Source: Enterobacteria phage vB_EcoM_IME540
Strand: one strand, 5' to 3'
Sequence record: MT150133.1
Length of the DNA: 64,000 nucleotides
A program made the translations under genes and the position numbers. Below the pieces are notes generated by a model. It worked only from the letters and a program-made list of their open reading frames with translations, ran no database searches and had not been told where the DNA came from. Within the stretch, counting starts at the first letter, position 1. Every line of letters begins with the position of its first letter. Positions 50,073-50,721 of the stretch are shown here, piece after piece.

Positions 50073-50099
50073 AAAAGGCCCAACCTTTCGGAAGGGCCG
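50073..50099 (-). terminator. intrinsic terminator (copy 1 of duplicated hairpin)
   Basis: minus strand GGCCCTTCCGAAAGGTTGGGCC then TTTTTTGTTTTT. Confidence 0.6.
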
Positions 50100-50103
50100 T
50101 GAA

Positions 50104-50658
50104 TCAGTTCTTGTAGAACCGGAACGGGTTTATGTGGAAGGCTAACATAGCCTTAGGGATTTTACGAGACAAAAGACTCTTAAGTTTCCAACCACAGTAC
50201 ACGCGAAGGTAAAAGGTAATTCCACCTACTTTAAGATACGGAACCGAAGCAAAGACTCCCCATGCTTCATCATTCCACATCCATAACCAACCATGGTGAG
50301 CTTTATCAGGAGAACCAGATTCTACATCAGGATTACCGCGATAATGGAATTCTGAACTACAATCACGTCCTAGTTTATGATAAGCAAAGTTATAAGCTTT
50401 ATTTCGCCATAGCCAAGCTACTCTCTGGAGGTAAACACCACCAGGCATTTTCCTGATTTTAGCCCAACGTTTAATATGACCTTTGTCGCCATCAATTGGA
50501 TTATCGTATGTCATCATCCAATCAAAGCCATAAGGCAATTTACCGGTCTTTTTATTGTAGAAAGGAACTACAAAAGGCGCAAGGATAACGGCTAGAACCA
50601 TAGAGATAAAATCCAGCGGGACCAACAGAATCCAACTCAAATATTTTAAAAGTTTCAT
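50104..50658 (-). CDS. membrane-anchored Trp-rich protein (184 aa), late-promoter driven
   Basis: N-terminal TM helix; AGGAAA SD; TATAAATA 27 nt upstream; flanked by duplicated terminators. Confidence 0.6.
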   Translation of the reverse strand: MKLLKYLSWILLVPLDFISMVLAVILAPFVVPFYNKKTGKLPYGFDWMMTYDNPIDGDKGHIKRWAKIRKMPGGVYLQRVAWLWRNKAYNFAYHKLGRDCSSEFHYRGNPDVESGSPDKAHHGWLWMWNDEAWGVFASVPYLKVGGITFYLRVYCGWKLKSLLSRKIPKAMLAFHINPFRFYKN

Positions 50659-50684
50659 ATTATTTCCTAAGTTAGTTTACTACA

Positions 50685-50692
50685 TATTTATA
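50685..50692 (-). promoter_or_regulatory. late promoter TATAAATA
   Basis: exact T4 late -10 consensus immediately upstream of ORF 50104..50658. Confidence 0.5.
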
Positions 50693-50694
50693 CA

Positions 50695-50721
50695 AAAAAG
50701 GCCCAACCTTTCGGAAGGGCC
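50695..50721 (-). terminator. intrinsic terminator (copy 2 of duplicated hairpin)
   Basis: same hairpin as 50073-50099, followed by TTTTTTGTA; ends the tRNA/stable-RNA transcript. Confidence 0.6.

Follow-up and report, generated by a model that had tools for sequence, protein, structure and literature searches.

The window, by which we mean the whole 64-kb stretch of phage DNA that was analysed, resembles the JS98-like T-even phages (Dhakavirus) in this region at 93-97% identity, and LQ5 was colinear with the entire 2.3-kb query taken from the locus. All genes near a 184-aa open reading frame (ORF) are encoded on the minus strand. In the direction of transcription, tRNA-Met is followed by a SegB-like GIY-YIG endonuclease, tRNA-Arg, approximately 230 nt of small-RNA sequence, an interval bounded by a duplicated hairpin, e.8 and further e.x genes. 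Phage T4 has the same gene order, but there rnaC leads directly to e.8 and the gene of the 184-aa protein, a member of family DUF7338, is absent. In the order of transcription, the features of the locus are as follows.

51740-51810, minus strand: tRNA-Met
51033-51698, minus strand: SegB-like GIY-YIG homing endonuclease between tRNA-Met and tRNA-Arg, at the same position as T4 segB
50953-51027, minus strand: tRNA-Arg (TCT), final tRNA of the operon ended by the upstream hairpin
50722-50952, minus strand: small stable RNA region from tRNA-Arg to the upstream hairpin, with an rnaD-like RNA and a conserved trailer (alignment with T4 rnaD/rnaC and JS98)
50694-50721, minus strand: upstream hairpin and U6, left copy of the repeat and predicted intrinsic terminator of the tRNA/small-RNA operon (pattern match, fold and T4 homology)
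50685-50692, minus strand: TATAAATA, T4-type late promoter -10 box, one base past the U-run (exact motif)
50665-50668, minus strand: Shine-Dalgarno (SD) sequence AGGA, 6 nt ahead of the ATG (read from the sequence)
50104-50658, minus strand: 184-aa ORF with an ATG start, DUF7338 / phrog_2143, N-terminal anchor and Trp-rich alpha/beta domain
50071-50098, minus strand: downstream hairpin and U6, right copy of the repeat and predicted terminator of the cassette
50019-50046, minus strand: T4-type early promoter for e.8, with an A-rich tract, GTTTACA, a 16-nt spacer and TG-n-TACTAT (from the sequence)
49720-49983, minus strand: e.8 homologue, 87 aa from its ATG, the first gene past the cassette (JS98 and T4 annotation)

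The 184-aa ORF is the sole credible ORF between the two hairpin copies, in agreement with the original prediction of a single ORF bracketed by hairpins. Its GC content is 40.4%, compared to 39.1 +/- 2.6% for the window, and a GC content this high or higher is found in 33% of equally sized windows; the composition of the ORF is that of the window and therefore carries no mark of recent foreign origin. A search of positions 48000-54000 against Rfam (E <= 1) returned the two tRNAs and one spurious antisense match, with no match for the hairpin or the small-RNA region.

The duplicated hairpin and the predicted promoters behind it

An exact 30-nt direct repeat was found at 50069-50098 and 50692-50721, with a spacing of 623 nt. 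The 28-nt minus-strand hairpin with its U-run, GGCCCTTCCGAAAGGTTGGGCCTTTTTT, has two matches in the window (50071-50098 and 50694-50721), and 100 dinucleotide-preserving shuffles yielded no match, even when 3 mismatches were allowed. The hairpin repeat is real and is not due to chance. The original prediction had placed the same hairpin at both ends, and the copies are indeed exact, although its interval for the first was one base off. Both copies form the same fold, in which 5 G-C pairs (GGCCC/GGGCC), a UU/UU internal loop and 2 C-G pairs (CC/GG) are closed by a GAAA tetraloop and followed by U6, with energies of -17.9 kcal/mol for the upstream copy and -15.3 kcal/mol for the other. Because of the internal loop, both hairpins were missed by a simple terminator scanner. 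On the transcribed strand, each copy combines a stable G+C-rich hairpin with a U-run, as in intrinsic terminators. The plus strand at the hairpins has no T-run, and the predicted terminators are therefore unidirectional.

A homologous hairpin of the GA/UU form, GCCCCGACCGAAAGGTTGGGGC followed by a U-run, is located approximately 50 nt past rnaC in T4, and the trailer CACTTGCC..GGTGGAACCCCGACAAGG ahead of the hairpin is common to T4 (after rnaC) and the upstream copy in the window. Since both the hairpin and the trailer are matched in T4, we take the upstream copy to be the conserved terminator of the tRNA/small-RNA operon. The bases past the right-hand hairpin of the window (TTTTTTGTTTCTAAAAG) resemble those past the single hairpin of T4 (TTTTTGGTATCTAAG). 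The proposed insulation of the ORF by duplicated terminators was upheld with regard to the duplication, but the upstream copy is the terminator of the neighbouring operon and not a private insulator.

In a PeSL module, as set out in passages of PMC4122927, a stem-loop lies directly upstream of an AT-rich tract, sigma-70-like -35 and -10 elements, an SD and an ATG, and the promoter consensus in T4/PST is TTTACW-N17-TAYWAT. Past the downstream hairpin of the window, the A-rich tract, the early promoter (GTTTACA-16-TACTAT at 50046-50019) and the SD and ATG of e.8 follow one another, and by these predicted elements the downstream hairpin and the e.8 promoter are a canonical PeSL. This known module had been missed when the locus was first described. 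The upstream hairpin is followed by TATAAATA without a -35 or other -10 element, and this module is therefore, by its predicted elements, a late-promoter variant and not a strict PeSL.

The T4 late promoter is defined by an 8-bp box approximately one helical turn before the start site, with no -35 element and with AT-rich DNA downstream (PMC2988020). The exact motif, already pointed out in the original prediction, is present at 50685-50692 on the minus strand, where it stands 26 nt ahead of the ATG and is followed by TGTAGTAAAC, and the window encodes a gp55 homologue (19797-20339, minus strand; 80% identity, 5e-96 in a tblastn search with a T4 gp55 query sequence). Six copies of TATAAATA were found in the window compared to 7.9 expected, which is not above chance. 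Although this count is not significant, something can be learned from where the copies lie. The transcribed strand carries five of the six, of which four fall between genes, with an ORF beginning 22-89 nt further on. One of the intergenic copies precedes the lysozyme gene e and overlaps the 5' arm of a hairpin that sequesters the ribosome-binding site (RBS), as in T4. From gene e (42.5 kb) to the baseplate genes (57.2 kb), the sole copy is the one before the 184-aa ORF, and for this reason the placement of the gene inside an otherwise early region, as first proposed, is a fair description. RBS sequestration of the kind found at gene e was considered for the 184-aa ORF and rejected, since the upstream leader has no complementarity to the SD.

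When the relatives were compared, a hairpin-G-TATAAATA composite was found to precede the DUF7338 gene in JS98, IME281, the relative designated L011 and the Mosigvirus KMB38, and it also precedes a second gene, orf135, in JS98. The Karamvirus counterpart reads hairpin-CATAAATA. In phage 005, QL01, RB43, KP27 and an uncultured gut-phage lineage, the gene comes directly after a terminator, with the ORF starting 10-25 nt past it and no TATAAATA in front, and in Felixounavirus it lies within an array of tRNA genes, co-linear with them. In all these phages, DUF7338 would be expressed by read-through or co-transcription, and a dedicated late promoter is thus not a general property of the gene.

These relatives, together with the chance-level frequency of TATAAATA, lend weight to a rival explanation in which there is no meaningful late promoter at the locus. 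The gene would instead be reached by transcripts of the tRNA/small-RNA operon that run past its leaky terminator, TATAAATA would be accidental in AT-rich DNA, and the hairpins would attenuate the synthesis of a potentially toxic membrane protein. The leader in the window contains no RBS-sequestering structure that would silence a read-through RNA, unlike that of gene e, and, according to a T4 omics study that does not cover DUF7338 (PMC9697503), the RNAC and RNAD made from the adjoining upstream stretch of T4 build up late in any case. However, three T-even lineages share the hairpin-G-TATAAATA composite base for base in front of DUF7338, and JS98 repeats it in front of a different gene, orf135; Karamvirus has hairpin-CATAAATA; and of the five TATAAATA boxes that the window carries on the transcribed strand, four lie between genes at the proper distance ahead of an ORF. 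We consider read-through alone an unlikely explanation. The arrangement of terminator, box and ORF suggests that the 184-aa protein is most likely made mainly late and at its own level, and its expression at late times only is plausible.

The DUF7338 protein and its neighbours in other phages

The 184-aa protein matched Pfam PF24027 (DUF7338) with 213.7 bits against a cut-off of 27 (2e-63), residues 1-183 being aligned to positions 1-179 of the 180 in the profile, and it matched phrog_2143 (PHROG 2143) at 2.6e-80. Its homologue in JS98 is named orf136. The description of the product as a Trp-rich, membrane-anchored protein was confirmed by the presence of 10 Trp (5.4%) and of one N-terminal hydrophobic helix, behind which lies a conserved Trp-rich domain of approximately 150 aa. 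The AlphaFold (AF2) model (pLDDT 95.4) has a long N-terminal helix (residues 2-33), predicted to be a transmembrane (TM) helix, several short helices and an antiparallel sheet. Topology prediction by the positive-inside rule, applied to the TM-flanking charges across the family, pointed weakly to an inside N-terminus and a domain in the periplasm. We take the product to be an inner-membrane-anchored protein in which a short N-terminal segment and a single TM helix precede the Trp-rich domain.

In an HMM search of the full library, the family comprised 963 clusters at 50% identity (E <= 1e-3), all of 160-220 aa; there were no domain fusions that might point to a function, every member being single-domain. 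The family extends over Dhaka-, Mosig-, Gelderland-, Karam-, Slopek- and Pseudotevenvirus, Felixounavirus, jumbo phages and prophages. Residues T50, D52, W82, R85, N86, Y89, G97, R152, G156, W157, K158 and P178 are invariant in the family alignment, and the motifs TYDNPIDGD, WLWRNKAYNF, RVYxGWKLK and HINPFR are conserved. PADLOC and NCBIfam scans of the protein gave no matches, a sequence profile search of the PDB gave nothing meaningful, and the best Foldseek hit against the PDB had an E-value of 0.7. The modelled fold thus appears to have no detectable similarity to any solved structure. In BFVD, only family members were retrieved, one of them loosely named 'envelope protein', and a literature search returned no paper mentioning DUF7338.

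In lytic phages, the DUF7338 gene is often located beside or inside tRNA clusters (the window, JS98, Karamvirus, Felixounavirus and KP27, where the tRNAs are approximately 900 nt upstream). In other phages and prophages, the gene was found directly after tail-fibre or chaperone genes (Phage_tail_APC once, DUF4376 twice and Gly_rich_2 twice); among these tail-fibre-adjacent copies, one is at a prophage end and two are before lysis genes. Accessory genes commonly accumulate near tail-fibre genes and in tRNA regions, and both neighbourhoods therefore fit the behaviour of morons in general. As to function, our leading guess, held with low confidence and offered as a possibility, is that DUF7338 may be a dispensable envelope-directed factor acting in superinfection exclusion or in receptor masking or modification. 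A role at the envelope, the receptor or in exclusion is ranked first for one reason, the adjacency to tail-fibre genes.

The original prediction had also named lysis functions, and a holin, an antiholin or a lysis-inhibition factor timed with lysis by its late promoter is the corresponding alternative. Some features of the family agree with it: the protein has a single N-terminal TM helix and is probably expressed late, the Mosigvirus copy lies directly after rI, two contigs have the gene immediately before a lysis cassette or an endolysin, and in some Felixounavirus and T-even GenBank records it is annotated as 'holin'. We found no experimental basis for these labels in the literature, and the Felix O1 paper gives holin candidates based on TM segments only. 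A holin is expected to be a small membrane protein that makes the lethal lesion, to be the sole holin of its lysis system and to lack a large conserved soluble domain. DUF7338 has one TM helix, but it also has a conserved domain of approximately 150 aa, it is absent or decayed in close relatives, and in a prophage fragment (L157) it adjoins a genuine holin-lysozyme-Rz cassette that has its own Pfam holin. A lysis function seems quite improbable to us.

A bolder proposal is that DUF7338 represents a new and so far unnoticed structural class of periplasm-facing, envelope-acting proteins anchored in the inner membrane that spread across phage groups as a terminator-bounded late cassette, for which the name 'PlSL' could be used. 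We regard this as speculative and rather doubtful. If it were true, exclusion or a change of the receptor would keep progeny from being wasted on debris or on infected cells, and the cassette, hosted by T-even, Felix O1-like and jumbo phages and by prophages, would be the late counterpart of PeSL mini-circle shuffling. The approximately one thousand clusters at 50% identity, the confident model without a solved relative and the recurrent tail-fibre adjacency make DUF7338 a good target for functional work.

Filled and empty sites among relatives

In the Mosigvirus KMB38, a DUF7338 gene (75% identical protein) is located after rI and is likewise flanked by two hairpins, with G-TATAAATA after the left hairpin and an early promoter after the right one. 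Both KMB38 hairpins carry the same compensatory change in the stem (GCCCC/GGGGC). This arrangement is found in 23 phage records, and most of approximately 160 other close matches align in two blocks that together make up 65% of the query and lack 623 nt, which is exactly one repeat unit. Empty sites were compared among complete Mosigvirus genomes, leaving out Av-05 (L020), a contig that looks chimeric. As seen in the junction alignment, the empty site of phage ChristianSchoenbein has one hairpin, with a left flank equal to the left flank of KMB38 and a right flank equal to the right flank of KMB38. At the locus of the window itself, the relative designated L026 differs from L011 in lacking the cassette, and it has a single hairpin and no TATAAATA there.

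Among near-identical phages, rearrangements were found at this locus in addition to presence and absence. In JS98 and IME281, the hairpin-TATAAATA module occurs a second time and is predicted from sequence to drive the extra gene orf135; phage 005 and QL01 have the swapped order, with orf135' first and DUF7338 second. In QL01, the DUF7338 leader is fused to the orf135' coding sequence, and chimeric (mosaic) leaders were also found in two further relatives, L049 and L053. The former has a decayed copy that keeps just the first ~17 and the last ~50 nt of the ORF. Together, the filled and empty sites, the two loci in two genera, the swapped orders, the chimeric leaders and the decayed copy provide an unusually clean natural example of gain and loss of a single accessory gene in T4-like phages. 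By this comparison of sequences, the unit of late promoter, ORF and hairpin behaves as a cassette that relatives acquire, lose and rearrange, and the filled and empty sites would fit insertion and deletion alike. That the duplication marks such a cassette had gone unnoticed in the original prediction.

An origin of the two hairpins as independent, convergently similar terminators of neighbouring units, in an ancestral arrangement that is no trace of a mobile cassette, is very improbable: the 18-nt hairpin core does appear to be a favoured terminator, being found in many unrelated phages (63 IMG/VR stretches), and a third copy ends the gene 25-uvsY unit in JS98-type genomes, but several observations count against such an origin. 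The copies are identical over 30 nt, a stretch that exceeds the stem and takes in the flanking ACAAAAAA. Their stems change together from one genus to the other, GG/CC being present twice here and GC/GC twice in KMB38. In addition, the polymorphism is a clean presence or absence of one repeat unit, leaders are chimeric and gene orders are swapped.

We consider it likely that the interval is a self-contained accessory cassette of the moron/PeSL type, consisting of the late promoter TATAAATA, the SD, the DUF7338 ORF and an intrinsic terminator. It is located directly past the U-run of the tRNA/small-RNA operon terminator and just before the e.8 early promoter. The two identical hairpins would be the insertion junctions, one being the resident terminator and the other the cassette's own. 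Homologous recombination at the hairpin could have given rise to the duplication, for instance when a small circle integrated in the Campbell manner, a route demonstrated for PeSL mini-circles; alternatively, the reverse reaction would delete one repeat unit. In operation, the upstream hairpin would halt most transcripts from the tRNA operon; once replication is under way, gp55-RNA polymerase would start approximately 6-8 nt past TATAAATA; and the downstream hairpin would end a monocistronic late mRNA of approximately 0.6 kb ahead of the e.8 early promoter. In this way, the gene could be made mainly late and at its own level, leaving its neighbours undisturbed. In mixed infections, T4 SegB causes the tRNA region to be inherited preferentially. 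A SegB-like homing endonuclease is encoded 340 nt upstream of the cassette, and at the tRNA-adjacent locus it could co-convert the cassette between related phages; the copy at the rI locus would need hairpin-mediated recombination instead.

Comparison with known systems

Genes for receptor blocking or superinfection exclusion that are located by receptor-binding genes include T5 llp, phi80/N15 cor and T4 sp/imm. Like these, DUF7338 is a small accessory protein with a predicted envelope location, and in non-T-even relatives its gene lies directly downstream of tail-fibre or chaperone genes. Unlike these, it is not a lipoprotein, and it shares no sequence or fold similarity with them. The likeness is best seen as an analogy and not as membership. 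A second comparison is with T4 gene e, a late gene within the early region. In both, an exact TATAAATA lies between genes on the strand of the early transcripts. At gene e (here 41999-42490), early read-through is silenced by a hairpin that sequesters the RBS, whereas the DUF7338 cassette has a terminator in front instead.

Morons, a concept of Hendrix and Juhala, are extra genes with their own promoter and terminator that lie between genes adjacent in related phages. They are dispensable, and in many cases the product is a membrane or envelope protein of benefit to the phage or the lysogen. The DUF7338 gene resembles morons in that it lies between genes that are adjacent elsewhere, rnaC leading directly to e.8 in T4 and Mosigvirus having both filled and empty sites, and in that prophages carry it at the classic moron site after tail-fibre genes. 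In contrast to lambdoid morons, the cassette is found in a strictly lytic phage, has a predicted late promoter and is not expressed from a repressed prophage, and it has no compositional anomaly, the GC content of the 184-aa ORF being like that of its surroundings.

In organization, the cassette is also like the PeSL and PmSL modules of T4-type phages (PMC2839356 and passages of PMC4122927), in which a repeated stem-loop, a promoter, an SD and an ATG flank small accessory ORFs in hyperplastic regions. As with those, the modules described here coincide with insertions, deletions, replacements or changes of order between close relatives. Arbiol et al. 2010 (PMC2839356) demonstrated crossovers between the -10 box and the ATG of PeSLs, excision and integration via flanking modules, and mini-circles, and the chimeric leaders found here fit crossovers at that position. 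Unlike PeSL and PmSL, however, the module before DUF7338 has a gp55-type TATAAATA in place of a sigma-70 early or a MotA middle promoter, and its repeated homology is essentially the hairpin and 8-10 nt. The phrase 'late promoter' does not occur in Arbiol et al. 2010, and passages of Comeau et al. 2014 (PMC4122927) describe early and middle versions of the module. Overall, the feature appears to be a late-promoter variant of the known PeSL/moron mobile regulatory cassettes, carrying a widespread DUF7338 protein. It does not overturn current understanding; it suggests that a recombining module can carry a late promoter, so that all three temporal classes of promoter would be represented among PeSL/PmSL-like modules.

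A decayed copy and a second copy of the DUF7338 gene

In a close relative (L049, positions 1040-1165; IMGVR_UViG_2974735671_000001), we found that an internal deletion of about 486 nt in the DUF7338 gene has left its leader, ~17 nt at the start and ~50 nt at the end of its ORF, and the downstream hairpin. This remnant indicates that the DUF7338 gene is dispensable and decays. In Escherichia phage Av-05 (L020; NC_025830, 120,938 bp), a T-even tk-rI segment is joined to capsid-like genes of opposite orientation, and the contig appears to be chimeric or incompletely assembled. A further DUF7338 gene, the second in this contig and 62% identical, lies in a tRNA-rich region (L089).

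Distribution of the hairpin core

The 18-nt hairpin core with its UU/UU mismatch (CCCTTCCGAAAGGTTGGG) was present in 63 IMG/VR viral stretches from many unrelated lineages (L009-L071), compared to just 10 and 6 stretches for the two perfectly paired versions (L162-L177), all three counts being of viral stretches with redundant lineages included. The outer stems co-vary, and a T-run is present, in nearly all of the 63 stretches with the mismatched core. The T4 hairpin is of the fully paired type, with GA/UU. In JS98-type genomes the hairpin that brackets the cassette occurs a third time, beyond the window (L032, 3702-3719; equivalents in L016, L029, L056, L062 and L065), where the gene 25-uvsY block meets the convergent uvsW/uvsW.1.

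The tRNA and small-RNA region

Two features upstream of the cassette were examined in comparison with JS98 and T4:
51033-51698 (-), SegB-like GIY-YIG homing endonuclease, between tRNA-Met and tRNA-Arg
50722-50952 (-), small-RNA region 3' of tRNA-Arg, compared with T4 (L002, 4833-5172)

Since JS98 has a tRNA-Asn and no endonuclease at the equivalent place, the endonuclease represents another indel at the locus of the cassette. An Rfam match to 'Plastid-ycf2' at 51739-51810 (+), scoring 33 bits against a gathering score of 65.7, was rejected as spurious, being the antisense of tRNA-Met.

Comparison of the small-RNA region with that of T4 revealed a homologue of rnaD and no counterpart of rnaC, together with an additional element of ~65 nt whose 3' end (...CACCGGCGCACCA) repeats the 3' end of rnaD (repeat D3). 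Ahead of the terminator, T4 and the window share a trailer of ~45 nt (CACTTGCC..GGTGGAACCCCGACAAGG). Neither the rnaD homologue, the ~65-nt element nor the ~45-nt trailer matched any Rfam family.

Other late promoter boxes in the window

The late promoter box TATAAATA was also found at the following sites:
34537-34544 (-), intergenic box, 89 nt ahead of a 97-aa ORF
57196-57203 (+) and 57211-57218 (-), back-to-back pair on opposite strands, in the region 57190-57240
42490-42530 (-), box and hairpin at lysozyme gene e (41999-42490)

The 97-aa ORF encodes a lipoprotein-like signal sequence (...LMAGC...), and its product is a possible late envelope lipoprotein or o-spanin. Both boxes of the 57-kb pair fall within an inverted repeat (AGTGCCTCC...GGAGGCACT) that would sequester the GGAGG of the next minus-strand ORF (149 aa) in read-through RNA. 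At gene e, the box overlaps the 5' arm of the ATACCTCC/GGAGGTAT hairpin, which covers the SD; this layout is the known arrangement of T4 gene e, in which translation is confined to late transcripts, and the sequestration predicted at 57190-57240 follows the same logic.
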